Shown piece after piece: positions 25,367-51,853 of a stretch of 64,000 nt of DNA. Numbering within the stretch: position 1 is the stretch's first letter; every line of letters starts with the position of its first letter. Position numbers and translations under genes: made by a program. The stretch lies in NCBI RefSeq assembly GCF_054482595.1, contig NZ_CM137008.1; one strand, written 5' to 3'. A model generated the notes under the pieces. It was not told the DNA's origin, did not search any database, and saw only the letters and a program-made list of their open reading frames with translations.

Positions 25367-28300
25367 TTACTCGCTAACCATCTTACTGAATAACTTCTCC
25401 AGATAAACGGGGCCTGTATCCTCAATAAAAAGCACATTTCTGGCTTCCAGATTTTCTTTTGAGTCAGGTACGTTTACTAAGTCAACATAACAAGTTTCAG
25501 AAACAATAAATGCACTTAATGATAAGTTATCATCCGATAATTTATGTTCAAGATTCTTAATTTCTTTATATAATCCGAACTTCGGATCATCAAGATTAAG
25601 ATTGCGAATGCCTTTTGGATCAATAAGACTTAGCCATTGTTTACCACTTTTATCATCGACTAACCACAATAAGAAATCCGGATAAAAATTACCCGCAGTA
25701 GCAAAGCCCAGGCCTTTATTTTTAGAATCCGCATTTCTTAGCAGATATAAACTTTTATCACCAATAATTTTCTGCCCTTTTGTCGAATCAACAAAAGACT
25801 GAAGATCCTGAACAAAAGTAATCTCGCTTGGCGCACCAAGTGCTGCCGGTCGCATTTTTAGCGGTATATTGGCATTTTTTTCAATCGAAAGAAGCGGGTA
25901 ATAGAGATGTTTATCAAAGGTAATAGCAACCATCCCGGATGCACTCCAGGATTTTGCTTTACCGATTTCGCCGTCGATGACCAATTGTTGTAATTGTTCC
26001 AGCCGACTGGCATAAGCCAACCCATCATCAGTTTCTTCGATCTCGAAATGGTACATTTTGATCATACCAGGATCATCTTCTTTCACCTGCGTGACTTCAT
26101 AAAACTGACCTTCATAAGCATTTTTCAAGGTGTTGTAAAAGCGATCAGTATAATCAGTCAGCAGACGAAGCATAATATCTTCCTGCTTAGCAATATCTGC
26201 ATATTGCTTAATCTCAAGCTCTGAAGCTGGAATCAAAAGGGTATACCAACTATTTCCGATCTTTGTCTTACCGGTACAAAAGTCGATCAAACGTTGTTTA
26301 TCCACACGTAAATTTGACCAGCCGCGTTGTAGTTTATAATTCTGAATGGCGAGATAAAGCCGATCAAAATCAAATGCACTAATGATTTTATAATCTAACT
26401 TCGCTTCATTGCGCACGTTAACCGGAGTATTGTCCCCTTTTCTGCTGGTATCAATCGACTCAAGTTTCGGGTATAAGTCCAGCTTAATATGCGGCTGCTT
26501 AATTTTCCCCTGAAAATCAGCAGGAACTTCATACAATTCAGGAAAATAGACACGTTTAAAGCCGAGTCTTTGATTATCTTTATAACCATCTTTAAGCTTA
26601 AGTGTTTTAAGCCTGGTTGCTGGCATATTTGGCCGAGTTTCAAAATTCAGCTCAAGGATCTCGTCACTTGGCGTAATCCCTTCATCTTCCAGGTATTGTT
26701 TAAAGGTTGCCATGTAATCGGCACGTACACCGAATACATTCAGTGTCTCTAATTTTTCCAGATGCAACCCTTTCGGACGCTCACCGGGTGTACTGCGTTT
26801 CAAAGAATAATTGCGACCTTTAAGGCGTACGCCACGACCAAATAACTGAATGATCTGTGAACCTTCTCCACGGCCCATATTGAGCAATCCCATCGTTGAG
26901 ACGCGCCAACTGCTCCAGCCTTCAGTAAATTTTCGCGAGCCGATCAAAATATGTAGTCGCGAGTCTTTGTCATTTAACGTATGAAAGAGTGACTTTGCAA
27001 AATCATCTCTCTGATAATCAAATGTCGTATCCTCTTCACACATTTTGTAAAGAGACGGTGCATCACCAATATTGATAAGGCCAAACGGTTCGGCCTCACC
27101 AACCTGTAATGCCAGTTCACCTTTACTGCCTATTAAATTCAGAACTCGCAGTCGCTGACCAGAGTGAGTGGTGTTAAACAAGCGAGAAAGAATATCTGCG
27201 TAGATATCTTCCGGAGCGTTCATTAGTGCAGTAAAGCGATTTTCAAAAATGTTACGCTCTTTGGTATCGAGGATTCGCGCTTTATTTTTAATGAGATCGT
27301 TAATCCACGCTTTTGCCTGCGTTTCGTGGTTTAAAAACCATGCTAAAAAACGCAATACTGCGTGAATGTCTGAATCTTCACCACTTACCGTATTACCGAC
27401 AAAAACCCACAGCGGTTTTTCGATATTAAATTCACTTAATTTTTCTTTATTCTTATTGAATAAATATTGTTGCTGATAAAAGCTGAGCAAACACGCGGTA
27501 AAATACTCATACCGACGCTCATCTTTTTTATCCTCTTCAGGATTAAGGTTAAGAATCAGTGATTCTTTACCATAACCATCCTCATAGAAGAATTTATAGG
27601 AGTAATCGAACAGAATCGATTTTCCATAGACCTCTCGCGTCGCCTGAATACGCGCATCTCGTTTTTCTTCGCTGGTTAATGCTATTTGCGCTAACTCTTC
27701 TTCGTTCAGTTTACCTAAGGCCGTTGTTTCAAAAAGCAGCTTTGCTTTTTTCTTCTGAATTTCTGTTTCAACTGCCTCAACATTATTGCCACCGGCTACT
27801 GCCTGGCCAAAAGTTGCTGAATATTCAAACGCAAATCCGTCACGTGTTAATTTGTCACGACGGCGCATCCAGGCACCAGCAGCACTTCCGGTGCCTTTAT
27901 GCCCTTCATCAATCAGAACCAGATTGTTGCCTTCAAATGCCTCAACGGCAACAGTTTTGTCACCCATTTCATCGGCAAGTTTATTGATATCAATAACTTC
28001 AATCGTGCCTTTGAAGGGCGCAGATTTACTCTTATCGAATAACTGGTATTGGGTAAATCCTGAGTTTTCCAGCTCATCTAAATGTTGCTTCGACAGGCGT
28101 TCATCCGGAGTAAGCAGGATGATTTTGTCGGGGTAATGGTGGGTATTACCGTTCTGGAAATAATGTAAGTATTGCAAAATATTGACATGCAATAGCAGTG
28201 TCTTACCAGAACCAGTAGCATTCCAGTATGCCAGTTTATTCAAATCATCCAGAATATATGATTTGAACTGATTAGCCCGGTCTTTTGCTGTTTTATCATT

Positions 28301-28747
28301 TTCAGCATTGTATGCTGCCAGCTCGTTATTTAGCCCATCGAGTAATTGCTGTTTACGATTGAAGTACCAGTCCAGGTAGATCTCGGTAAACAAAAGCGAC
28401 AAGTACTGAAAATATTTCATGTTCAGCACAGTGTCTTCTTTGCGATTACGGTGCTCAGTTATCTGCTGCCAGTGCTGCACGATATTGAGATCGTAACGAC
28501 GCAGTTCATCGAGATCGATAAGATCGACCTCGAATAAATAGTTACTCAGCTCATGGAAGAACAAACTTTGGCCATCCTCATGGATGCCTTCAAAGCGATC
28601 TTCACCTAACCGATTCTTCAGACCTTGCAATGTGCCATCTTTAAAAAAATGGAACATAAAGCGGTTCAAAACCAGTTGCTTATGAAAGCTCAGTTTGCTG
28701 TTTGTCTCTTTTTTAACAGCTTTACCGGTGGTCGGTTTTTTAGCCAT
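25367..28747 (-). CDS. SF2 helicase with C-terminal PD-(D/E)xK-like motif (Type III Res-like), third gene of the operon
   Basis: 1126 aa; Walker A NATGSGKT (~aa 177-183), DExH-like VLIDEGHKG (~aa 278-286), SAT-type motif III (YSATFG), motif VI-like QLFGRGVRL, and near the C-terminus YPDFLLWLVDDKSGKQWLSLIDPKG, which fits a PD-(D/E)xK nuclease signature; start overlaps the upstream gene's stop. Confidence 0.65.
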   Translation of the reverse strand: MAKKPTTGKAVKKETNSKLSFHKQLVLNRFMFHFFKDGTLQGLKNRLGEDRFEGIHEDGQSLFFHELSNYLFEVDLIDLDELRRYDLNIVQHWQQITEHRNRKEDTVLNMKYFQYLSLLFTEIYLDWYFNRKQQLLDGLNNELAAYNAENDKTAKDRANQFKSYILDDLNKLAYWNATGSGKTLLLHVNILQYLHYFQNGNTHHYPDKIILLTPDERLSKQHLDELENSGFTQYQLFDKSKSAPFKGTIEVIDINKLADEMGDKTVAVEAFEGNNLVLIDEGHKGTGSAAGAWMRRRDKLTRDGFAFEYSATFGQAVAGGNNVEAVETEIQKKKAKLLFETTALGKLNEEELAQIALTSEEKRDARIQATREVYGKSILFDYSYKFFYEDGYGKESLILNLNPEEDKKDERRYEYFTACLLSFYQQQYLFNKNKEKLSEFNIEKPLWVFVGNTVSGEDSDIHAVLRFLAWFLNHETQAKAWINDLIKNKARILDTKERNIFENRFTALMNAPEDIYADILSRLFNTTHSGQRLRVLNLIGSKGELALQVGEAEPFGLINIGDAPSLYKMCEEDTTFDYQRDDFAKSLFHTLNDKDSRLHILIGSRKFTEGWSSWRVSTMGLLNMGRGEGSQIIQLFGRGVRLKGRNYSLKRSTPGERPKGLHLEKLETLNVFGVRADYMATFKQYLEDEGITPSDEILELNFETRPNMPATRLKTLKLKDGYKDNQRLGFKRVYFPELYEVPADFQGKIKQPHIKLDLYPKLESIDTSRKGDNTPVNVRNEAKLDYKIISAFDFDRLYLAIQNYKLQRGWSNLRVDKQRLIDFCTGKTKIGNSWYTLLIPASELEIKQYADIAKQEDIMLRLLTDYTDRFYNTLKNAYEGQFYEVTQVKEDDPGMIKMYHFEIEETDDGLAYASRLEQLQQLVIDGEIGKAKSWSASGMVAITFDKHLYYPLLSIEKNANIPLKMRPAALGAPSEITFVQDLQSFVDSTKGQKIIGDKSLYLLRNADSKNKGLGFATAGNFYPDFLLWLVDDKSGKQWLSLIDPKGIRNLNLDDPKFGLYKEIKNLEHKLSDDNLSLSAFIVSETCYVDLVNVPDSKENLEARNVLFIEDTGPVYLEKLFSKMVSE

Positions 28748-28749
28748 TC

Positions 28750-31700
28750 TTAAACCTCCTCCGCAAACATCAGGTTCAAGAATTCAGGTTCGATCTGGCG
28801 GATTTTCAGGCTACGAACAATCTCGCCGTCTTCTTCATCAACGGTAAAGGCGGTAGGCAAGTTATGATCGCCATTGATATAGATAACGTCATACGTGTTT
28901 TCTTTTGCATACAAATCAAATCGGTTAGCATATTTATTCAATTCTTCATAACCGATCTTGTCGCAATCGCGCCACAGAATAAGGGTACGCTCGCCTGTTG
29001 GCAGCGTACCTTCAACACGCACATAGCCACGTTCGATATTGGATTCGATGGATTTCACATGTAATCCAATGAGATAGTTGAAAGTTTCAACTAAATCGAT
29101 GTTTTTACGCTCAGTGGCACCGGCGGAATCCGTCGCAATATCCATTTCGTAGTTAAATGGTTTTTTGAAATTATCGATTCCGAGAAAAGAATCTTTACTC
29201 TCATTTTTAATGAGATAATTTAATAGATAATCATTCCTCACATCTGAAGGCAATGTTTCGAAAAGATCTATGGGAGATTTTTTCAGTACTATATTATTTA
29301 AGCAATCTTCATAGCTTTCTAGTTTAATTGTTTTAAGAATATGTGATATACCGTTTTTATCCTGTGGATAACCTTTATTCCACTTATCGCTATAAACGGC
29401 TTTTACAATTCTAGCTTTTATAACTGAATCAGAATGTTCTCCCATTTCAACTAATATATATTTATGATCTTCAGATTTTTCTCTATTTCTATTAATAACA
29501 GCATGTGCGGTGGTTCCACTGCCGCCAAAAAGATCGACTATGGTTTCATTATTAGCACTATGCCATACTGAATCAATAACGCGTTCCATAGTACCTAAGG
29601 ATTTTGGATAAGAAAACAAACCTGCAGAGCCAAACATGGACGTTAATAAATTTGTGCCACCTATGGTAGCATTATATTGTGATCCTTGCCAAATACTAGG
29701 AAGCAGTAACCTTCTTGCGCTATCATGATATAATCTGTTTATGACAAATTTGTTTGAACTTACCAATTCACCTACTTCAATTGCTTTTTTAGCCCCTTCA
29801 TAAGAAAGCGACCAAACTCTTTCTTCCCCATTCTCACCAATGGGATAGACTCTTTTTAAACCTTCTTTGGTTTCACCTACCGGATAATTACCTTTTTCTA
29901 AAGGAACAGGTGGTGGTTCGACTCCTTTAACTTCAAATGTATCAGGGTCAACCAAAACTGCAAAAAAGCTTTCTGGACGACCAGGATTACCAATCCTAAA
30001 ATTATTATCTCCGGTACCAGCTCTTCTAAAACCTCTAGTTCGAATTCCATCCTCCACACTATCCCCTTTGAGAATATCCATTCCTTCTGGTATAGAAAAC
30101 AGACAATATTCATGTGTTCTCGAAACATTTGTTCTACCTGTCCCAGACCCAGGATAGTGCTCAACGATACATTGTAAAACCTCTCTTTCTGGATTGATAC
30201 TTTTTTCCAATTCTTTTAAAAGAGACATTTCTGTATCATCAATAGCATAACAAAAAACACCGTTATTATTTAATAGTTTTTTAGATAAAATGATTCTATC
30301 AGCCATTAATGTAGCCCATGAAGAATCCTTATATCCATTTTTATATAAGATAGGAGTTGCATCAGTATTATATGGTGGATCAAGATATATTATGCTTGTA
30401 CTTTTATCAAACTTAGTCTCAAGGATTTTTAGGGCTTGATAATTTTCAGAGTTGACCAATAGCCCATTAATCTCATTATCAATATTATCAATTGATCGAA
30501 TCAGTTCACATTTAAATTTAGAATCAAAAAAAGTAGTATCAACCATCAGATATGGTGAACTCTTGAGAAATTTCATATCCCGAGAGTTATGCTGTTGAAA
30601 TAGACCTAGCGTACTCCAATGTTTAAATTGTTTATCATTTACTAATATAGTTTGATAAAGAGCATCTGGAATTCTATCTAAAGTAATACAGTATTCCGTA
30701 GAAACAACAAACTTCTTCTTAGTCCAAAGTTTTTTCTGGAAATTCTCAATTTGTGCCAAAAATGTAATGAGTTCCAGTGCAACAGTACGCAAACATTGAA
30801 TCATGCGCAATTGTTTCTCAATATTGGCAAACACTTCTGCATTTTGCACATTATCGAGATTCATTACTTCATTTTTAATATAAAAATCCAGTTCGTTCGT
30901 TAAAAAACCACCGAGATCTTTATGGATAAAGTAGTCTGCTGTATTACGCTGGGTATAAGTTGTAAGGTGACGCTCCAACTCTGTACGTGACGGATTTTTT
31001 TCTGTTGGCGCACGTTTAGCAAGATCAACCCAATGCTGTTGAACTGTTTTATCTGCCAGAATTGTTGAAATAGCGGACTGTACTAAAGCATCCTGCTTAG
31101 TGCCCTTTTTCATTGCCTTATATTCGAAGTGAATAACTAACTCTTCTGTTTCAACGAGTTTACCGTCCACCACAGATGAGTTTTTCACCACTTCTACTGG
31201 CTTATATTCTTGTTCATACTCATCACCTTCTTCATCAATTTTGGTACGAACATGTGGCTCAATAAGTACAAAGCAGCGATCTAATTCATTATCCTTACGG
31301 TTATCTTTTGCTGTGTCCGCTGCGAGCAATTTAAAGCTAACTTTACGACCATCATCTAATTTAAATGAATAATTAGCAAAGTTTTCGCCACTTTTAATGT
31401 AGTACTGGTCCTTATTTGCCCAGTGCAACATCACTTCTTCGCCAGAATAAGGGATGGCGTAGGTATTACCTTTATAACGGCGTTTGCTGATAAAATCGCC
31501 GTTGTCATAATAACGAGAAAAGAAAGTGAGCAGATGGGAAAATACTGCATTTTCATGCTCATTTGCTCCGGATGCCATAGCCGCCAGTTGCTTTTTAAGC
31601 TCCTGTACTTTCGGGCTATCAGCAGGGTCCACACCCGCATCAGTTGCCGCTTTTATTGTCAGTTGCAACTGATGTTCTAATTCTGATTTATTGGCATTTC

Positions 31701-31884
31701 CTGCATCCGCCAGCGCAGACTGGATTTTGGCCTTCAGCTTATTATCCAGATAGTCGTTAATTTCATCAGCACGTGCATTTAAAATACGATAAATACCGAA
31801 ATCCAGTTCTGGTCGATCAATCTGAAAAATTTCTTTTAGCTTCTTAACTAATTCGTTGTACTTACTCATTATTTTCTCTTTCAA
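28750..31884 (-). CDS. Beta-class DNA amino-methyltransferase (N6-adenine or N4-cytosine; Type III Mod-like) with ~480-aa N-terminal extension
   Basis: 1044 aa; catalytic motif IV IIYLDPPYNT (~aa 498-507) lies before the AdoMet motif I DLFGGSGTTAHAV (~aa 784-796), the circular permutation of beta-class MTases; the N-terminal ~480 aa is unassigned. Confidence 0.7.
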   Translation of the reverse strand: MKEKIMSKYNELVKKLKEIFQIDRPELDFGIYRILNARADEINDYLDNKLKAKIQSALADAGNANKSELEHQLQLTIKAATDAGVDPADSPKVQELKKQLAAMASGANEHENAVFSHLLTFFSRYYDNGDFISKRRYKGNTYAIPYSGEEVMLHWANKDQYYIKSGENFANYSFKLDDGRKVSFKLLAADTAKDNRKDNELDRCFVLIEPHVRTKIDEEGDEYEQEYKPVEVVKNSSVVDGKLVETEELVIHFEYKAMKKGTKQDALVQSAISTILADKTVQQHWVDLAKRAPTEKNPSRTELERHLTTYTQRNTADYFIHKDLGGFLTNELDFYIKNEVMNLDNVQNAEVFANIEKQLRMIQCLRTVALELITFLAQIENFQKKLWTKKKFVVSTEYCITLDRIPDALYQTILVNDKQFKHWSTLGLFQQHNSRDMKFLKSSPYLMVDTTFFDSKFKCELIRSIDNIDNEINGLLVNSENYQALKILETKFDKSTSIIYLDPPYNTDATPILYKNGYKDSSWATLMADRIILSKKLLNNNGVFCYAIDDTEMSLLKELEKSINPEREVLQCIVEHYPGSGTGRTNVSRTHEYCLFSIPEGMDILKGDSVEDGIRTRGFRRAGTGDNNFRIGNPGRPESFFAVLVDPDTFEVKGVEPPPVPLEKGNYPVGETKEGLKRVYPIGENGEERVWSLSYEGAKKAIEVGELVSSNKFVINRLYHDSARRLLLPSIWQGSQYNATIGGTNLLTSMFGSAGLFSYPKSLGTMERVIDSVWHSANNETIVDLFGGSGTTAHAVINRNREKSEDHKYILVEMGEHSDSVIKARIVKAVYSDKWNKGYPQDKNGISHILKTIKLESYEDCLNNIVLKKSPIDLFETLPSDVRNDYLLNYLIKNESKDSFLGIDNFKKPFNYEMDIATDSAGATERKNIDLVETFNYLIGLHVKSIESNIERGYVRVEGTLPTGERTLILWRDCDKIGYEELNKYANRFDLYAKENTYDVIYINGDHNLPTAFTVDEEDGEIVRSLKIRQIEPEFLNLMFAEEV

Positions 31885-31889
31885 ATCAA

Positions 31890-34781
31890 TTAAATAACTT
31901 TCCAGCGGATGGAAAAAAGCTCGGTGATATCCGTTTTTTGCTTCATCCGCTCTTCAAGGGCACTGATGAGTTCATCCCGCTTGTCGGCGATCTCATCTTC
32001 AATGTCAAAAATTTCCATACGTTGGCGCTTCTGCTGCCGCTCCAGTAGCTTCAGCTTTTCCTGGTTTTGCTTTTGTTCTTCGATCGATTGTGCCAGTCTG
32101 GCTTCTCGCTTCAACGACTTGATTTGCATTTTGGTATCGCGTAATGCTTCTTCCGCCGCAAAGATCATGTCTTCAGCCCATTTTTCCAGCTTATCTCTTT
32201 CCGCTTCAAAAAGGACATTGTTCTGCTCCAAAACTTCCGCAAGCCTGGCGTCAATTTGCCTGTTCTTGAGTAAGATCAAGTCATCAGGTAATGCATCTAA
32301 ACTTGCCGAATTATCCAGCTTTTCGTTGGTTATTGCAGACAAGTTGAACAGACGTTTACAAGCCTCACCATCTACCACACGGCCGCTGTCAGTTTTCGCG
32401 GTAAAGACTAAAAATTGCTGCCGGTTAAACGCATCAACAGTAAGCAAATTTAGTGTTAACCACCCTGATAGCCCTTTCAGCTGCTCAGCCACCGAGACTT
32501 TCGTTGTGTGGTTACTGTAATCGAAGATGACTTCAGCTGTTTTCGTCTCCTGGGCTTTGGCTCCCTCAATGACGTACTCACCCAGCGGATGATTGATCCG
32601 ATATGCAAAACTGTGGTGATCCTGCATTTGTAACGCACTATTTTGCCTGCCATCTTTGCGCAACAGCTGATACTGCCCCACAGGCAGTTCATTGACTGAC
32701 TCACGTAAAGTAAAACGATGATGCTCATGATCAAAATCAGCATATTGTTTGAGCTGCTGACAGGTAACGGCCCAAAACCAACGACCGACTTTATCCAGAC
32801 GCTCCCGAGCTTCATCAAGCCTTATTTTAAGGATATCGTGAATATCTTCATCAAAATGCTCAAGCAACTGTTCCTGCGTCTTCTGCATCTTGAGATTGAT
32901 TTCATCTTCCAGCTCTTTCTGCAACCTTTCAAAAGCCAGCTCTATCTCCTCGGGGGTACGGCATGACTCATAAATTGACTGGATCCTTTTTTCAAAATCC
33001 ACTCCATTTTCTATGCTGCCAAGCACACTATCCGATGCACCAAACACGCCATCAAACAGGCTGAACTTTTCAGTTAAGAGTTCAAGAACTCGTTGATCGG
33101 CCTGGTTTCGCTGATTGAGGAAGTTAATAACAACCACATCAAACTTTTGCCCGTATCGGTGACAACGCCCAATACGCTGTTCAATGCGTTGTGGATTCCA
33201 GGGTAAATCGTAATTGATCAGTAGCGAACAAAATTGCAGGTTCACCCCTTCAGCTGCAGCTTCTGTAGCTATCATGATTTCAGCATGATCTTTGAAGTGG
33301 TCGATCAAAGCCGAGCGTTTATCAATTTGCGCCGACCCGGTAATACGAGAAGATCCCTGATATTCCTCGCGCCATTGCTGGTAGATCTTGTTTGCCTGCG
33401 GTGTATTGTTTGTGCCACTAAAGGTTACTACTTTCCCCTGGTAGCCATTGTTTTCCAGAAAATGTGCAAGATACTGTTGAGTTCGCATTGACTCCGTGAA
33501 GATGATGACTTTTTTTGCAGCCCCCATTTCGGCAAGCTGTGCAAAACCTTGCTCCAGGCCAGAAAGCAACTCTTTTGATTTGGTATCAGTGCCAATCTGT
33601 TCTGCTTTGACAATGAGTGATTCCAGCTCATTGATTTCTGCCTGAAGCGCGTCTGAATCGACAACTTTGCACTCGGTATCTAAAGCCACTGATTCGGCAT
33701 CTTCCACGATGTCATCTTCAAGATCGTCATCCATTATGATCTGTTGGATGATGTTCATATCATCTTCAACGATACCTTCCAGCTTTAACCTTTCTAAACG
33801 ACTCTTAAGGATCTGCAAGTTATTCAATACAGCTTTCGTACTTGAGGAAAGTAGCTTTCTGAGAATAAGCCCCGTCAGATGCCGGTGTCGTTTTGGTAAG
33901 GCATAGCTATCCTCACGTTCAAGCAATTTTTGTACGCGTTCATAAAGATCCTGCTCCTGTTCGCTCGGATAGAAAGGAATAGTGATCGCTTTACGTTCTG
34001 TATACTTGATGTACTCCAGCACATTCTTGCGTAAAGTTCGTTTGATAAAACGCGACAATCGCCCCTTCAACTCCGCAATATCGCTATCTGCCTGCATATA
34101 TTGCTTTCTGAACGCTTTAACTTCGCCGAAGGTATGTTCATCTATAAGCGTCGACATGCCATACAGTTCCATTAACGAATTCTGTAAAGGCGTTGCGGTC
34201 AGTAGTAATTTTTTCCGCCCATCAAGCGCACGCTTTAACGCTTGCCCCATTTTGTTACTTTCTCGATGAGCATTACGCAGTTTATGGGCTTCGTCGATAA
34301 CAACCAGATCCCACATTTCAGCCACCAATTTTTCTTCTAACCGAGCAGCATAGTGGTATGACATGATAGTGATCGATTTATTATTTAAGGGATTATGGAT
34401 CCCTTCTTTTTGAAGCTGGCTATACGTTTTCGCGTCCAACACCTGAGAAGGTAGATTGAACTTTTCCTGTAACTCGCTCGCCCATTGGCGACGCAGTGAA
34501 GCAGGACAAATGATCAACAGTTTACGTTTTCTTTCAGCCCACAACTGGCAAAGCACTAACCCCGCTTCAATGGTTTTACCTAAACCAACTTCATCGGCAA
34601 GCACAACACCTTTGCTTAGCGGATTTTCAATAGCAAAAAGAGCCGCCTCAATTTGATGAGGATTTAGATCTACGCTTGCATCAAACAGCGATTGAGACAG
34701 ACGGTCCACCCCATTGTTTGAATGGAGAATGGAAAGTTCATGCGCAAAATATTTCGCATGATAAGGTGTTGTACCAATCAT
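31890..34781 (-). CDS. SNF2/RAD54-family helicase, first gene of the operon
   Basis: 963 aa; motif I LADEVGLGKT (~aa 61-70), motif II VVIDEAHKLRN (~aa 160-170), motif III LLLTATPLQN, motif VI QRIGRCHRYGQK; long charged coiled-coil C-terminus. Confidence 0.75.
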   Translation of the reverse strand: MIGTTPYHAKYFAHELSILHSNNGVDRLSQSLFDASVDLNPHQIEAALFAIENPLSKGVVLADEVGLGKTIEAGLVLCQLWAERKRKLLIICPASLRRQWASELQEKFNLPSQVLDAKTYSQLQKEGIHNPLNNKSITIMSYHYAARLEEKLVAEMWDLVVIDEAHKLRNAHRESNKMGQALKRALDGRKKLLLTATPLQNSLMELYGMSTLIDEHTFGEVKAFRKQYMQADSDIAELKGRLSRFIKRTLRKNVLEYIKYTERKAITIPFYPSEQEQDLYERVQKLLEREDSYALPKRHRHLTGLILRKLLSSSTKAVLNNLQILKSRLERLKLEGIVEDDMNIIQQIIMDDDLEDDIVEDAESVALDTECKVVDSDALQAEINELESLIVKAEQIGTDTKSKELLSGLEQGFAQLAEMGAAKKVIIFTESMRTQQYLAHFLENNGYQGKVVTFSGTNNTPQANKIYQQWREEYQGSSRITGSAQIDKRSALIDHFKDHAEIMIATEAAAEGVNLQFCSLLINYDLPWNPQRIEQRIGRCHRYGQKFDVVVINFLNQRNQADQRVLELLTEKFSLFDGVFGASDSVLGSIENGVDFEKRIQSIYESCRTPEEIELAFERLQKELEDEINLKMQKTQEQLLEHFDEDIHDILKIRLDEARERLDKVGRWFWAVTCQQLKQYADFDHEHHRFTLRESVNELPVGQYQLLRKDGRQNSALQMQDHHSFAYRINHPLGEYVIEGAKAQETKTAEVIFDYSNHTTKVSVAEQLKGLSGWLTLNLLTVDAFNRQQFLVFTAKTDSGRVVDGEACKRLFNLSAITNEKLDNSASLDALPDDLILLKNRQIDARLAEVLEQNNVLFEAERDKLEKWAEDMIFAAEEALRDTKMQIKSLKREARLAQSIEEQKQNQEKLKLLERQQKRQRMEIFDIEDEIADKRDELISALEERMKQKTDITELFSIRWKVI

Positions 34782-47180: not shown

Positions 47181-47794
47181 ATGACCTGCTCCCCGTTGTT
47201 TCACACAGAATCGTGTACAGGGTCGAAGTTCTGGCTCAATGTGCTGACTGAACTGAAAAACCGCGGTCTGAACGATATCCTCATCACCTGTGTAGATAGC
47301 CTGAAAGGCTTTCCAGATGCCATCAACACAGTATATCCGGAGGCCAGCATCCAGTTATGCATCGTGCATATGGTGCGCAACAGCCTGCGCTTCGTGTCAT
47401 GGAAGGACTACAAAGCCGTCACTCGCGACCTGAAAGAGATTTAATCAGGCACCCACGGAAGAGACAGGCTAGCAAGCACTAGATAAGTCGGAGCTGGCAG
47501 GCTAACTGACCGAATCTTACCACGTTCTTCGCTTATCTGACGGACATTCGCAAAGTGCGCTATACGACGAATGCCATCGAGTCACTAAACAGTGTGATCC
47601 GCCATGCGATCAAAAAGCGTAAAGTGTTCCCGACAGACGACTCGGTGAAAAAAGTGGTGTGGCTGGCAATCCAGTCTGCGTCCCAGAAATGGACGGTGTC
47701 GTTGAAGGACAGGTGTATGGCAATGAGCCGCTTTATTATCGAGTTCGGTGACTGCCTGTCACTTCTGAAAAAAGGCATTTACACAGAATCCTAA
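47181..47794 (+). pseudogene. IS256-family (mutator-type) transposase, fragmented
   Basis: Two short ORFs (…[47 protein letters not shown]… and …TNAIESLNSVIRHAIKKRKVFPTDDSVKKVVWLAIQSASQKW…) resemble the C-terminal half of IS256-family transposases, broken by stops. Confidence 0.5.
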
Positions 47795-47913: not shown

Positions 47914-48796
47914 AGGGAATTTCTCCCTATACTTCCAGACATCTGTTATCATTTAACCCATTACTGATCCGCTGCCGCATATATACCTGCGGCGAGCGAT
48001 AACTTAGAACTATGCTGCATTGTAATGTTCGATTGCTACTGCATGGTTATGCAATGCCGTCATTAACATCTGGCTTGGGCATGAACACGATGTAGTCACG
48101 CTTTATCGTTTTCACGAAGCTCTCTGCTATTCTGTTACTCTCCGGACTCCGCACCGCCGTGTTCTTCGATTCAAGTCCCAACATCCGAGCGAACTGGCGT
48201 GTTTCATTAGCCCGGTAGCATGAACCATTATCTGTCAGCCACTCCACTGGAGACGCCGGAAGCTCGTTGCCGAAGCGGCGTTCCACCGCTCCTGGCATGA
48301 CGTCCTGTACTGTTTCACTGTTGAAGCCGCCGGTAGTGACCGCCCAGTGCATCACCCCGGCAATAAGGGAGCGTGCGCTATCCACTTTTTGCACGTCCAT
48401 ATTCAACGGCTTCTTTAATGAGTTCATTTTCCATCGTTTTGTTCCGGGCAGGCGCTGGCGTTCTTTAATCTGCCTTATGGCAGCAGCAAGTTCAGAGGCA
48501 GGAACGATCTGTTCCCCAGCAGTCACCGCAGTAAGACTTCCCTCCTGGTATTGCTTGCGCCAGAGAAGTAACTGGCTGCTACACCATGTTGCCGGGCAAC
48601 GAGGGAGACCGTCATTCCTGGTTCAAAGCTCTTCTGAACATTAGCGATCTTTTCCTGTGCAGTATGCCGTCTGAGTTTCTCCGGTCCTGAGGCATCAATC
48701 ATCTGTTTTCCAATGACCAGTCTAAAAACTAATATTAAGATTATCACTTATTTAAGTGATATTGGTTGACTGGAGATTCAGGGGGCTAGCCTATCC
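47914..48796 (-). mobile_element. IS2 remnant with internal deletion (pseudo)
   Basis: Ends resemble the IS2 termini (…ccagacatctgttatcatttaaccc… and …ctggagattcagggggctagccta); encodes truncated InsD-like (159 aa) and InsC-like (74 aa) fragments; ~0.88 kb versus 1.33 kb for intact IS2; left boundary approximate. Confidence 0.65.
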
Positions 48797-48922
48797 GGGA
48801 AAGTTCACTCACTTTGAATGAAGTAAATATTAAGTATCACATTTTGTGATGTAGCCATTATTTTTATAAAAAATCACCTGATAGGATTTATCATAAGTTA
48901 ATGATAAGCAGAGTATTGATAG

Positions 48923-49363
48923 ATGAGCAAGAAGAAGTTTTCTGTTGAGAATGAAGATCTCTCTACTGTTCGTACATCACTTCTTAATTCCAACCTTGTC
49001 CGGAAGTTGATCATGGAAATGTCTGATGAAGACTTCAATCAAGTTAAGGATAACCTTGAAAAGGCCATTGAGCAGCGTAATGAGTTGAAGGATTCTTTGG
49101 CAATTATCAAAAAGTACATGGATGACGCAGGTGTAACGGCGGAAGATGTGTATCGTGAATTTGGCAAAAAATTACAGACGGGCAGAAAAAACGATTCAGG
49201 AGAGTCTAATAAGTACAGGTATGAGTATAACGGTCAAATAATGTACTGGAGTGGACAAGGTCGTCGGCCTTCTGTTATTGCAGAAGCAATAAAAGCCGGA
49301 GGTTCTCTTGATGATTTTCTTATATCTCAGGGCACATCATCATCTTGTTCTGATTATGAGTGA
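48923..49363 (+). CDS. H-NS-family nucleoid-associated protein paralog
   Basis: 146 aa; N-terminal coiled-coil-like region and a C-terminal DNA-binding motif YWSGQGRRPSVIAEAIKAGGSLDDFLI, close to the H-NS TWTGQGRTPAVIKKAM...SLDDFLI signature. Confidence 0.65.
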   Translation: MSKKKFSVENEDLSTVRTSLLNSNLVRKLIMEMSDEDFNQVKDNLEKAIEQRNELKDSLAIIKKYMDDAGVTAEDVYREFGKKLQTGRKNDSGESNKYRYEYNGQIMYWSGQGRRPSVIAEAIKAGGSLDDFLISQGTSSSCSDYE

Positions 49364-49631: not shown

Positions 49632-50139
49632 GTGGACGAAAAGACGCTTAAAGTCCTTGCGGCTGAACTGGCTAAAGGCCTCAAAACCGGGGCCGATCTC
49701 AATCAGTTTTCCCGTATGCTGACGAAATTAACTGTCGAAACGGCGCTTAATGCGGAACTCGGTAACGGCTGCAGATGTTCCTGCTCTGGTGTATGCTCAG
49801 CATCCTGTTTTGGTGCGGCGAAGACATGGAAGCGGCGGGAGAACCCCAGCGTATTAACCGCAAAGTTAACTTTGCACCGTTGCCCGGCAACCTCCACCTC
49901 AACTTCGCCCTAGTCGTGCTGGAGCTGGTATCCAGGCTGAGTTTCGAAGCGAACTGTTCTTTTTGACGGACGCATTTTACGTTTGGGCTGGATGTAGTAA
50001 CGCAGCATGGAACGTCCGCCCGTATAACCCATTGCCTGACCGTTCGTTCAGAGCAACCAATCTGAGTCGCAATATCGACAATGTACGCGCCCTGCTGGCG
50101 CATTTGCTTTATCATGTAAAAGTCCTCTCTGCTCAGCAT
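49632..50139. pseudogene. Transposase fragments (HTH N-terminus on - strand; IS256-like piece on + strand)
   Basis: MLSREDFYMIKQMRQQGAYIVDIATQIGCSERTVRQW on the - strand looks like a transposase HTH; MDEKTLKVLAAELAKGLKTGADLNQFSRMLTKLTVETALNAEL on the + strand resembles an IS256-family internal segment; both are broken. Confidence 0.3.
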
Positions 50140-51171: not shown

Positions 51172-51738
51172 ATGCCTAAATCTTACACACCAAACTGGTT
51201 TTTTACCGCTTTACTTGACAATCACATCAATCAAATGATGGCACGCTATTCCTGCCTGCGGGCCTTACGCATGGATTTCTTCTACAGGAAAGATACGCCT
51301 GATTTCTTACAACCTGATCATCGCTGGCTTGAATTGCAGTTGCGTATGCTGCTGGAGCAGGTGGAACAATTTGAAAATATCGTTGGCTTCTTCTGGGTGA
51401 TTGAATGGACGGCTGATCATGGTTTTCATGCGCATGCGGTTTTCTGGATCGATCGTCAGAGGGTTAAAAAAATATATCCCTTTGCGGAGCGGATTACGGA
51501 ATGCTGGCGGTCTATTACGCATAACAGTGGTTCGGCACACCGCTGTACATATCAGCCGCATTATACATACAACATCAACATTCCTGTGCGCCACAACGAT
51601 CCTGAAAGCATCGATAATATTCGCGGTGCCCTGCATTATCTGGCGAAAGAAGAACAAAAAGACGGGCTGTGTGCCTACGGCTGCAATGAAGTTCCTGAAC
51701 GTCCTGCTGCAGGGCGTCCTCGTAAGCCTCACTTCTGA
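51172..51738 (+). CDS. YagK/YfjJ-family protein, second paralog
   Basis: 188 aa; FFWVIEWTADHGFHAHAVFWIDRQ parallels the HYHVILLL region of the 45229 gene. Confidence 0.4.
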   Translation: MPKSYTPNWFFTALLDNHINQMMARYSCLRALRMDFFYRKDTPDFLQPDHRWLELQLRMLLEQVEQFENIVGFFWVIEWTADHGFHAHAVFWIDRQRVKKIYPFAERITECWRSITHNSGSAHRCTYQPHYTYNINIPVRHNDPESIDNIRGALHYLAKEEQKDGLCAYGCNEVPERPAAGRPRKPHF

Positions 51739-51853
51739 AAGTTTGAATCATGAGTTTCCTGGCCCGGAAACACTTAGTCGGTAAAAACTTACCTCGATGA
51801 TTAATGATGTGAACTGAAGTCAACGGAGATCATTCACCCTGAACCTGCATCCG

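Follow-up and report, generated by a model that had tools for sequence, protein, structure and literature searches.

Members of the H-NS family are xenogeneic silencers of Proteobacteria, and paralogs of H-NS govern the tolerance of acquired DNA and the timing of virulence and fimbrial gene expression. Those of Escherichia coli which we found named in the literature are StpA, Hfp (also H-NSB or H-NS2), H-NST, Ler, the plasmid-borne Sfh and Sfx, and the clade HlpC. Hfp is a protein of 134-135 aa which shares ~58% identity with H-NS along its full length and heteromerises with it (PMC2814080). Together with Sfh, Hfp and H-NS2 provide the precedent for island- or plasmid-borne H-NS homologs silencing overlapping gene sets (PMC2814080, PMC5861252, PMC7544231). 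Ler is H-NS-like in its C-terminal domain only and is an antisilencer with no reported H-NS interaction (review PMC7074111). Sfx is described in PMC11796372 as a regulator of IncX conjugation, while HppX has diverged at the QGR positions (PMC7544231). Among the H-NS dimerisation residues R12, R15, L26, L30 and L33, HlpC differs only at position 33; it carries I, L, V, T or F at position 21, has R93 conserved, and is almost invariant across five genera (PMC7544231, Fitzgerald et al. 2020; accessions in Table S1, e.g. EQX80536.1). [quoted passage not shown]

We describe here a gene located at 48923..49363 (plus strand) of a 64,000-nucleotide stretch of contig NZ_CM137008.1 (RefSeq assembly GCF_054482595.1), referred to as the window. 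It had been predicted to encode an H-NS family paralog carried on an island, and this is borne out: the product has a DNA-binding motif of the H-NS type and an N-terminal domain made of helices. Judged from its sequence, the gene encodes an intact, full-length and deeply divergent member of the family. Together with a second allele it appears, on sequence identity, to represent a further clade which is far more divergent than StpA or Hfp/H-NS2, HlpC being set apart by description.

Coding region and start codon

The ORF listing of the window contains an ATG-initiated ORF of 146 aa at precisely the coordinates originally predicted, with its stop codon at 49361-49363 and TGA TAG in frame directly before the ATG. 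The ORF and its Pfam, NCBIfam and PDB matches define a complete CDS for an H-NS family protein of 16.6 kDa and pI 5.2, the type A allele of the clade. A database protein lookup placed the exact protein on at least 1000 contigs, and identical DNA in RefSeq is likewise annotated as H-NS family.

The RefSeq model is often of 116 aa (WP_001342701.1). Comparison of the alleles supports the 146-aa start over this call; the N-terminus MSKKK(F/I)SVENE is common to type A and to type B, which is 62% identical to it. Since WP_001342701.1 is without helix 1 (residues 8-21) and most of helix 2 (23-32) of the oligomerisation domain, cloning from that annotation would yield a crippled protein.

Predicted protein domains

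An H-NS-type C-terminal DNA-binding domain occupies residues 97-136 (49211..49330, plus strand), as identified by Pfam, PDB and Foldseek searches and by family alignment. Pfam PF00816 (Histone_HNS C-terminal domain) matches residues 97-134 (E = 3.3e-11), and phmmer against the PDB recovered the C-terminal domains of StpA (2lrx; 3.7e-7), H-NS (1hnr; 1.1e-6) and, more weakly, Ler (2lev; 1.5e-3). The AlphaFold model (pLDDT 83.7) has the H-NS order of helix and hairpin, and its C-terminal domain superimposes on Salmonella H-NS (2l93) at 1.6 Å over 42 columns with a Foldseek probability of 1.00. The motif quoted in the original prediction, YWSGQGRRPSVIAEAIKAGGSLDDFLI, is present at residues 108-134 but is not the end of the protein, since 12 residues, SQGTSSSCSDYE, come after it. 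The loop W109-S-G-Q112-G113-R114-R-P116, encoded at 49247-49270, fits the family pattern W-x-G-(Q/R)-G-R-x-P. An alignment of 66 family members shows no variation at W109, G111, G113 or P116 and hardly any at R114. The minor-groove loop is intact in type A (Q112-G113-R114, in YWSGQGRRP), and the domain would bind AT-rich DNA with a narrow minor groove. It is followed by a Ser-rich acidic tail, GTSSSCSDYE (49331..49360, plus strand), delimited by alignment and disordered in the model (pLDDT < 50). The type B counterpart is EVSSGPDYE; H-NS and StpA have no such tail.

Alignment to H-NS, StpA and Hfp/H-NS2, as had been proposed for this gene, revealed similarity extending beyond a few residues, so that the likeness is not that of a short shared motif. 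Overall identity to H-NS and StpA is ~29% (MAFFT). The protein nevertheless scores far below the cut-offs of the named families, and was rejected as H-NS proper (NCBIfam NF008193; 34.5 bits against a cut-off of 211, with E. coli H-NS as control at 289) and as StpA (NF007656; 47.5 bits against 202, with E. coli StpA at 281.5).

The N-terminal oligomerisation-type domain, residues 1-85 (48923..49177, plus strand), was delimited using AlphaFold, hhalign and MAFFT, and consists of four predicted helices (8-21, 23-32, 35-69 and 73-85; pLDDT > 90). It had been called coiled-coil-like; the helices agree with this, and the domain proves to be homologous to that of H-NS. The match to Pfam PF22470 (Histone_HNS_N) is weak (E = 0.0075), but a profile-profile comparison with H-NS family N-terminal domains gave 98% (hhalign; E = 1.5e-13), with query residues 16-82 corresponding to H-NS 4-81. 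By alignment the homology spans both H-NS dimerisation sites (helices 1-3 and helices 3-4). As Foldseek with the whole model found no match for the elongated helical N-terminal domain, the homology rests on hhalign and Pfam. The multi-repeat proteins P0136 and P0137 match query residues 30-82 only, and do so repeatedly; we ascribe this to coiled-coil composition and do not count them as relatives. A tandem fusion of two N-terminal domains, modelled in AlphaFold to probe homodimerisation, reached a pTM of 0.64 versus 0.46 for the monomer, a gain that is at most suggestive, and Foldseek of the fusion yielded spurious coiled-coil matches only. The domain would form homo-oligomers.

Within this homology the differences from H-NS are considerable. 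A 13-residue extension precedes the H-NS-like part, and the long helix 3 lacks 11 residues, the counterparts of H-NS 42-52. The N-domain is ~15-25% identical to that of H-NS, compared with 50-63% among H-NS, StpA and H-NS2. The equivalents of H-NS R12, R15, L26, L30 and L33 are N24, R27, F38, K42 and L45, with R15, L26 and L33 conservatively kept; C21 is replaced by M33, and the equivalent of K57 is also changed.

These residues bear on the suggestion, made in the original prediction, that an island-encoded paralog could pair with H-NS. The protein might act mainly through mixed oligomers with H-NS or StpA, changing how far island genes, and core genes like fim, are silenced. The homology over both dimerisation sites, the three conserved positions and the documented Hfp-H-NS heteromers (PMC2814080) speak for this, but we consider it less likely than not. 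Because the N-domain is so little like that of H-NS, the known heteromerising pairs lying in the 50-63% range, and the equivalents of R12 and L30 are absent, heteromerisation of the type A protein with H-NS is doubtful. Helix 3 is also shorter, and it is argued in PMC7544231 that divergence at such positions lowers pairing with H-NS. Nothing in our analysis ties the protein to fim, and any part in the control of fim or nanC-fimB would be speculative.

A flexible linker, residues 86-96 (49178..49210, plus strand), was recognised by low pLDDT and charge comparison, the low-confidence segment of the model being residues 86-97. Its sequence, KKLQTGRKNDSGESNK, has a net charge of +3 versus +6 for the H-NS hinge. 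The hinge equivalents are L84, R88, N90, D91 and E94; four of the five basic residues are thus changed, with only K87 remaining basic (R88). Since the residues critical in H-NS are mostly not basic here, silencing strength may be low.

A weakly basic linker, which may hamper bridging or silencing, would also suit an anti-silencer of the Ler type, binding the AT-rich DNA of H-NS in non-repressive complexes which displace H-NS and turn island genes on. Ler too combines an H-NS-type C-terminal domain, detectably similar to that of type A (2lev), with a divergent, shorter coiled-coil N-terminal domain. We consider this unlikely: both H-NS-like dimerisation sites and the QGR loop are kept, StpA and H-NS are closer than Ler in every search, and the genetic context is not the LEE.

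Upstream sequence

DNA homology between type A and type B starts ~105 bp 5' of the ATG, with ~75% nucleotide identity overall, and the near-identical upstream blocks include ATTATTTTTAT and AAATCACCTGATAGGATTT. It defines a conserved AT-rich region at 48817..48922 (plus strand), presumed to serve the hns-like gene as promoter and 5' UTR. We only infer the promoter role, since a promoter scan found no consensus sigma-70 promoter in the conserved 105 bp. The sole terminator-like hairpin found by a terminator scan falls within the CDS, where it overlaps the QGR codons, presumably by chance; an Rfam search of 46-52 kb gave no RNA family.

The statement that the whole region is AT-rich holds for the gene (39.7% GC) and for the 105-bp upstream region (24.5% GC), but not for the island at large, where 2-kb windows range from 38.6% to 54% GC. 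Because the conserved upstream region is very AT-rich, the hns-like gene would itself be a likely target of H-NS repression.

Alleles and distribution

The clade is narrow and comprises the two alleles, type A (that of the window) and type B. Among 5426 complete E. coli genomes type A is full-length in 134 and type B in 188, so that 322 (~6%) carry a full-length copy of either allele; a further 117 contain IS-truncated remnants only. The ETEC reference strain E24377A has a full-length copy. In EAEC 042, on which work on "third paralogues" was done, the copy is truncated to a 72-aa remnant, and for this reason the 042 RNA-seq tables (PMC5861252; hns, hns2) were dropped as a source of expression data.

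Named database members of the clade are nearly all from E. coli. Peptide-pattern and exact 26-mer scans of one genome per GTDB species detected no member outside E. coli, none was found in a phage collection, and only two of 72,556 plasmids carry the gene. Between the alleles dN/dS over the gene as a whole is 0.47; it is lower in codons 1-30 (0.25) and higher in the central N-terminal domain (0.65), the last value indicating relaxed or diversifying constraint. The values for the gene and for codons 1-30, the wide occurrence of the exact protein and the ~105 bp shared upstream by the alleles suggest a genuine gene which is being kept. Within type A, the ORF and the 105-bp upstream region are 100% identical among many unrelated isolates from different hosts.

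Genomic neighbourhood

The neighbouring genes mark the hns-like gene as what appears to be a backbone component of tRNA-associated E. coli genomic islands, of the leuX and pheV types with a CbtA/YeeU, YfjJ and AlpA backbone. In the window its setting is scarred by insertion sequences. RefSeq annotation of identical DNA places a frameshifted transposase remnant directly upstream (47927..48702, minus strand), forming the left edge of this setting; the remnant ends before the conserved promoter region. Directly downstream, RefSeq annotation and the ORF list give a fragment of an IS256-family transposase (49632-49760, plus strand) and then an IS21-family fragment (49784-50139, minus strand). A ProQ/FinO-family gene, frameshifted according to the mapped RefSeq annotation (53710..54055, minus strand), is found 4.3 kb downstream from the hns-like gene. 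Every type A locus examined has this one arrangement, as in strains W5-6, EC052 and ETEC1738 and in plasmid pRHB40-C01_2. A 118-aa hypothetical ORF which follows ProQ/FinO in ETEC1738, at the position occupied by the hns-like gene in type B, is not H-NS-like.

In type B the ProQ/FinO gene is found ~0.7 kb upstream of the hns-like gene and divergent from it. All five type B loci examined share the order ProQ/FinO (minus), small hypothetical ORFs, hns-like gene (plus) and a 189-aa hypothetical gene (minus); a dGTPase-family gene (minus) comes next in four of the five, and in E24377A an IS66 element replaces the downstream part. Three of these five loci, like the window, carry ProQ/FinO as a pseudogene, while the hns-like gene is intact in all of them.

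Loss of the gene is evidently tolerated, since it sits amid IS fragments away from its usual neighbours and 117 genomes retain truncated remnants. In this strain type A could be a functionless relic, an intact ORF stranded by IS rearrangement, unexpressed or inconsequential, and kept by clonal descent. Transposase fragments on both sides, the single scarred arrangement, the frameshifted ProQ/FinO partner, the remnants (EAEC 042 included) and the failure of the scan to find a consensus promoter would all fit such a history. Set against them are an ORF and upstream region intact and identical in many unrelated isolates, the wide occurrence of the exact protein, a dN/dS below 1 relative to type B, and an IS remnant which spares the conserved promoter region; we think the relic improbable.

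The conserved ProQ/FinO neighbour raises a different possibility, namely a nucleic-acid chaperone acting on RNA and DNA in the manner of StpA, which together with ProQ/FinO would control island maintenance or transfer genes post-transcriptionally. The top NCBIfam and PDB scores are indeed to StpA and not to H-NS, and the two genes are divergent neighbours in all five type B loci. The preference for StpA is, however, small and far under the family cut-off, and since the hns-like gene stays intact where ProQ/FinO is a pseudogene the two genes are not co-dependent; we regard this role as very unlikely.

Proposed role

The reading which we favour, and think likely, is that of a divergent H-NS family nucleoid-associated protein which modulates the genes of its island. 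As homo-oligomers the protein would coat or bridge AT-rich island DNA and so modulate, most likely repress, island genes; both the AT-rich DNA binding and the self-association are read from the domain homologies. Overlap with the targets of H-NS and StpA would arise mainly by competing for, or sharing, sites on the DNA, and not necessarily through mixed oligomers. The short helix 3, the lost equivalents of R12 and L30, and the weakly basic linker lead us to predict that filament geometry is altered, that the intrinsic affinity for DNA is weaker, and that the protein pairs less with H-NS and Hha or not at all.

A more elaborate version would make the protein an orthogonal silencer private to the island. 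On account of the short helix 3, the altered interface and the weakly charged linker it would build filaments of its own, unmixed with H-NS, StpA or Hha. With the divergent ProQ/FinO-like chaperone it would constitute a two-layer module, acting on DNA and RNA, which controls the excision, transfer or cost of leuX- and pheV-type islands. The two alleles, 62% identical and fastest evolving in the oligomerisation domain, would be incompatible specificity types which allow related islands to coexist in one cell. Taken jointly, these proposals are, we think, unlikely to hold.

No literature naming the type A protein was found. The family is well known, and the protein adds to it an uncharacterised member and not a new category; a database label for it already exists. 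Its natural differences (11 residues fewer in helix 3, loss of the R12 equivalent, and change in four of five basic hinge residues) make it a ready test case for what determines, in H-NS proteins, the geometry of the filaments, the affinity for DNA and the choice of partners.

Relationship to described H-NS homologs

The type A protein resembles H-NS in size, in acidic pI (5.2, compared with 5.4 for H-NS), in the C-terminal fold with an identical W-x-G-Q-G-R-x-P loop, and in possessing a homologous N-terminal domain. It differs in the equivalents of R12, C21, L30 and K57, in four of the five hinge residues, and in the shorter helix 3. StpA is the top-scoring named family in both NCBIfam and PDB searches and has the same domain order. 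Like StpA the protein has no Cys at the H-NS C21 position, and for this reason it may, by inference from PMC7544231, be sensitive to Lon as StpA is. StpA is a core protein of Enterobacteriaceae, whereas type A is accessory and island-borne; it is extended at the N-terminus, has a deletion in helix 3 and carries an acidic tail.

Hfp (UPEC 536, CFT073, EAEC 042) is similar in being full-length and carried on an acquired chromosomal island by a minority of E. coli strains, and in having its N-terminal oligomerisation domain joined through a linker to a C-terminal DNA-binding domain of the QGR type. Membership of the Hfp/H-NS2 clade was rejected: overall identity to H-NS2 of EAEC 042 is ~32%, with the N-domain at 24% and the C-domain at 45%, the criterion used in PMC7544231 to search for Hfp being >90% identity. 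The island type also differs, Hfp being found in serU/asnW (EARL-type) or ssrA islands and type A in those of the leuX and pheV types.

Ler is likewise encoded on an island; its coiled-coil N-terminal domain is also divergent and shorter, and its C-terminal domain is detectably similar. Ler, however, is encoded in the LEE, and the type A protein, which lacks that context, is H-NS-like in its N-terminal domain also and keeps the QGR loop and both dimerisation sites; identity with Ler was therefore rejected. H-NST, which consists of the N-terminal domain only, was set aside because type A is full-length with an intact C-terminal domain. The best plasmid matches outside the clade are HppX/Sfx of IncX (32.5% identity over residues 9-144), which are also H-NS homologs dedicated to a mobile element but are plasmid-borne; the QGR residues from which HppX has diverged are kept in type A.

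HlpC, like type A, is a sporadic, chromosomal, horizontally mobile H-NS homolog of some E. coli strains. At the five dimerisation positions type A has N, R, F, K and L, with M at position 21 and E at position 93. In contrast to the near-invariance of HlpC across genera, its clade consists of two alleles only 62% identical, and no member was found among the GTDB representatives of species in other genera. The type A protein is therefore probably not HlpC, from which it is set apart by the residue descriptions in PMC7544231 only.

Coding sequence and start codon

The hns-like gene, at nucleotides 48923-49363 (+) of the window, begins with an ATG and specifies the 146-amino acid protein of the original prediction. 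The H-NS-type peptide said to end this protein is present (residues 108-134) but is not C-terminal, being followed by the 12 residues SQGTSSSCSDYE. NCBI and UniProt both contain the exact 146-residue sequence, labelled H-NS histone family protein, and this form is annotated on plasmid pRHB40-C01_2. Where strains W5-6, EC052 and ETEC1738 carry identical DNA, RefSeq calls a 116-amino acid product starting at position 49013 (WP_001342701.1). This product (49013-49363) starts at Met31 and lacks the first helix of the oligomerisation domain (residues 8-21) and the greater part of the second (23-32).

Judged by comparison of the allele in the window (type A) with a second, 62%-identical allele (type B), the 146-residue start is better supported than the 116-residue one. 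The long start is favoured because the two alleles have a common N-terminus, MSKKK(F/I)SVENE; both carry two in-frame stop codons directly before the long-form ATG; dN/dS between them is 0.25 over codons 1-30; Met31, the RefSeq start, is Thr in type B; and the DNA homology, which begins about 105 bp before the long start, ends just past the stop codon. The right coordinates are therefore 48923-49363. Type B is itself annotated in the long form, at 144 amino acids. The short call is a start-codon error that recurs in RefSeq.

Family assignment and predicted structure

That the protein belongs to the H-NS family, as predicted, is borne out by several comparisons. Pfam PF00816 (H-NS C-terminal domain) matches residues 97-134 (E 3.3e-11) and PF22470 (H-NS N-terminal domain) gives a weak match to residues 17-75 (E 0.0075). 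A phmmer search of PDB sequences recovered the C-terminal domains of StpA (2lrx; E 3.7e-7), H-NS (1hnr, E 1.1e-6; 2l93, E 1.5e-5) and Ler (2lev; E 1.5e-3). The AlphaFold model, built from a 66-sequence family alignment (mean pLDDT 83.7), has helices at residues 8-21, 23-32, 35-69 and 73-85 and, after a linker modelled with low confidence, a beta-hairpin (98-109) and a pair of short helices; the tail is disordered. In a Foldseek comparison its C-terminal domain matches that of Salmonella H-NS with a probability of 1.00, superimposing to 1.6 A across 42 columns. The coiled-coil-like N-terminus also holds up: besides the four helices, the N-terminal profile of the clade formed by types A and B matches, at E 1.5e-13 and a probability of 98%, one made from the N-terminal domains of 63 other H-NS family members, both profiles being cuts of one joint MAFFT alignment. 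It pairs clade residues 16-82 with H-NS 4-81, covering both dimerisation sites, and the Pfam N-terminal matches to both types are independent support for this homology. The similarity thus spans far more than a few residues. The protein is an unstudied, deeply divergent member of the H-NS family rather than a new kind of system; it is already machine-annotated as a family member, and an island-encoded H-NS paralog would not by itself surprise a specialist.

Extent and frequency of the clade

When 1.84 billion cluster representatives were searched exhaustively with phmmer, a single full-length relative exceeded 50% identity, the 144-residue type B protein (P0132; 62%), which is the form in ETEC E24377A (WP_000038245.1); the remaining H-NS family proteins scored E 1e-10 or worse, at 25-40% identity. 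Word-indexed searches with either allele returned only types A and B, variants of these differing by one residue, fragments, and a single protein that appears to be recombinant, P0119 (146 amino acids, from a 578 bp ENA metagenome contig), in which residues 1-83 are type B-like and the rest type A-like, so that the putative break would lie at the domain boundary. Named entries are nearly all E. coli, one being labelled MULTISPECIES Enterobacteriaceae. The clade was absent from a scan of one genome per GTDB species, made with peptide patterns and an exact 26-mer common to both alleles, and no copy of the gene was found in phage records. Two of 72,556 plasmids carry it, one copy being frameshifted and the other, intact, lying within the IS-scarred segment that also surrounds the chromosomal copies.

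Clade material occurs in 439 of 5426 complete E. coli genomes, always on the chromosome: 134 have full-length type A (>=99% nucleotide identity), 188 full-length type B (ca. 75%), and 117 only a 3' remnant, the rest having been cut off by IS elements. EAEC 042, in this last group, carries in its pheV island a 72-amino acid ORF (WP_255091497.1; 24828-25046 (-) of the segment L010, NC_017626.1 3424827-3425045), truncated by an IS-related frameshifted gene and comprising only a type A-like linker and C-terminal DNA-binding domain.

In the literature on H-NS paralogues, Hfp, HlpC, E24377A and the pheV/leuX islands we found no paper naming or testing this protein. The closest approach to a mention is in a review (PMC7074111), whose Table S1 gives E. 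coli 042, 55989, SMS-3-5 and ABU 83972 and Salmonella Heidelberg SL476 as having weak tBLASTn matches to H-NS; these lie in Phe- and Leu-tRNA islands and show 40-50% identity at E ~1e-4. The pheV-region island of 042, which presumably corresponds to the Phe-tRNA entry for that strain, was confirmed to hold a clade remnant, and the other four matches probably belong to the same clade. The work on strain 042 which defined 'third paralogues' makes no mention of its copy.

Genomic setting

The window takes in uxuR-uxuA, gntP, the fim operon and nanCMS before entering the island, whose backbone includes YeeU/CbtA, antirestriction, DUF932 and GTPase genes. As mapped from strain EC052, the hns-like gene is preceded by transposase fragments (47181-47794) and a frameshifted transposase (47927-48702, -), and followed by IS256 (49632-49760) and IS21 (49784-50139, -) fragments, a second module of YfjJ/Gp2, hypothetical, AlpA and hypothetical genes (51172-53691) and a frameshifted ProQ/FinO-family gene (53710-54055, -). 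The region had been described as AT-rich throughout; this is true of the gene (39.7% GC) and its conserved upstream segment (24.5%), but across the surrounding island GC content varies from 38.6 to 54%.

Type A lies in this IS-scarred setting in every genome examined. That it is a stranded relic is one of the main alternatives to a regulatory role, and we consider it improbable. The type B arrangement looks undisturbed: all five loci examined have the order YfjJ/Gp2, hypothetical, AlpA, (hypothetical), YfjJ-domain protein, ProQ/FinO (-), small ORFs, hns-like (+) and a 189-residue hypothetical (-). A dGTPase-family (HD domain) gene (-), of a known anti-phage defence type, comes next in four of them; in E24377A, IS66 replaces the downstream part. 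Since this order is constant, the hns-like gene is a component of the island backbone, divergently paired with the ProQ/FinO-family gene. The partner is often a pseudogene, and is intact (114 amino acids) in some type B strains. The pairing suggests an island module with a DNA-level and an RNA-level regulator.

Three further features were observed. In the identical EC052 DNA an ORF for a heat-stable enterotoxin of the EAST1 (astA) family is annotated; it lies at 47368-47433 (+), within an IS256-family (IS1414-like) transposase remnant, and the hns-like gene follows ca. 1.5 kb downstream. The astA gene is also on the intact plasmid copy of the segment. Three large ORFs at 25367-34781 (-) form a defence cluster (963-residue DrmD-like SNF2 helicase, 1044-residue type III methyltransferase, 1126-residue type III restriction enzyme) missing from EC052, otherwise the best-matching strain. 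Relative to EC052 there is also an insertion of ca. 1.3 kb (18542-19870) in the fimB-nanC intergenic region, its ends 87-90% identical to the transposase remnant beside the hns-like gene and to 54073-54514. This intergenic region is regulated by H-NS and NanR/NagC, and the IS could affect control of fimB.

Proposed mechanism

The mechanism that we consider most likely starts from what the protein demonstrably has, its domain architecture and a retained minor-groove loop. The C-terminal domain would bind AT-rich DNA while the N-terminal domain drove head-head and tail-tail self-association, and the resulting filaments would repress or modulate island genes, overlapping H-NS targets. The gene might itself be an H-NS target, as are stpA and hfp, since its conserved upstream region is very AT-rich. 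A Ler-like role, in which the protein would act against silencing, is another of the main alternatives and seems to us rather unlikely.

Comparison with H-NS and its relatives

Against the H-NS equivalog, whose cut-off is 211 bits, the protein scores 34.5, and against that of StpA (cut-off 202) it scores 47.5. Our comparator H-NS and StpA sequences score 289 and 281.5 bits and are therefore valid comparators; in a MAFFT alignment the protein is 29% identical to each. H-NS, StpA and H-NS2 (the Hfp-clade protein of EAEC 042, 30099-30506 of the segment L011) show N-domain identities of 50-63% and C-domain identities of 66-75% among themselves, versus 15-25% and 45-57% for the hns-like protein against these three. 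It is thus not Hfp, which has 134 amino acids and 57.7% identity to H-NS (PMC2814080); nor is it H-NST, since it is full length, or Ler, there being no LEE setting and StpA and H-NS being closer. Every non-H-NS clade defined in PMC7544231 has I, L, V, T or F at position 21, and all but HppX keep R93, whereas our protein has M33 and E94; this mismatch and the two divergent alleles argue against HlpC, which was compared by description only, and the other clades.

Relative to H-NS the protein is extended by 13 residues at the N-terminus and its first helix is longer, long helix 3 is short by 11 residues (H-NS 42-52), the linker has a net charge of +3 versus +6, and a 10-residue Ser-rich acidic tail is present. 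The loop W109-S-G-Q112-G113-R114-R-P116 is intact. PMC7544231 summarises the H-NS positions whose function has been tested; at these, types A and B respectively have N24 and D for R12 (essential for Hha binding), R27 and K for R15, M33 and M for C21, F38 and L for L26, K42 and K for L30, L45 and F for L33, and S58 and N for K57. DNA binding and repression by H-NS depend critically on the basic residues of the hinge (PMC7544231), where the two types have L84 and S for K83, R88 and R for K87, N90 and S for K89, D91 and V for R90, and E94 and an alignment gap for R93. Because of the divergent interface residues, shorter helix 3 and low linker charge, Hha interaction, strong autonomous DNA binding and mixed oligomers with H-NS are all uncertain; the heteromerisation originally suggested is, on these same differences, doubtful. 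As a natural variant, the protein can serve to test what determines which partners H-NS proteins choose and how tightly they bind DNA.
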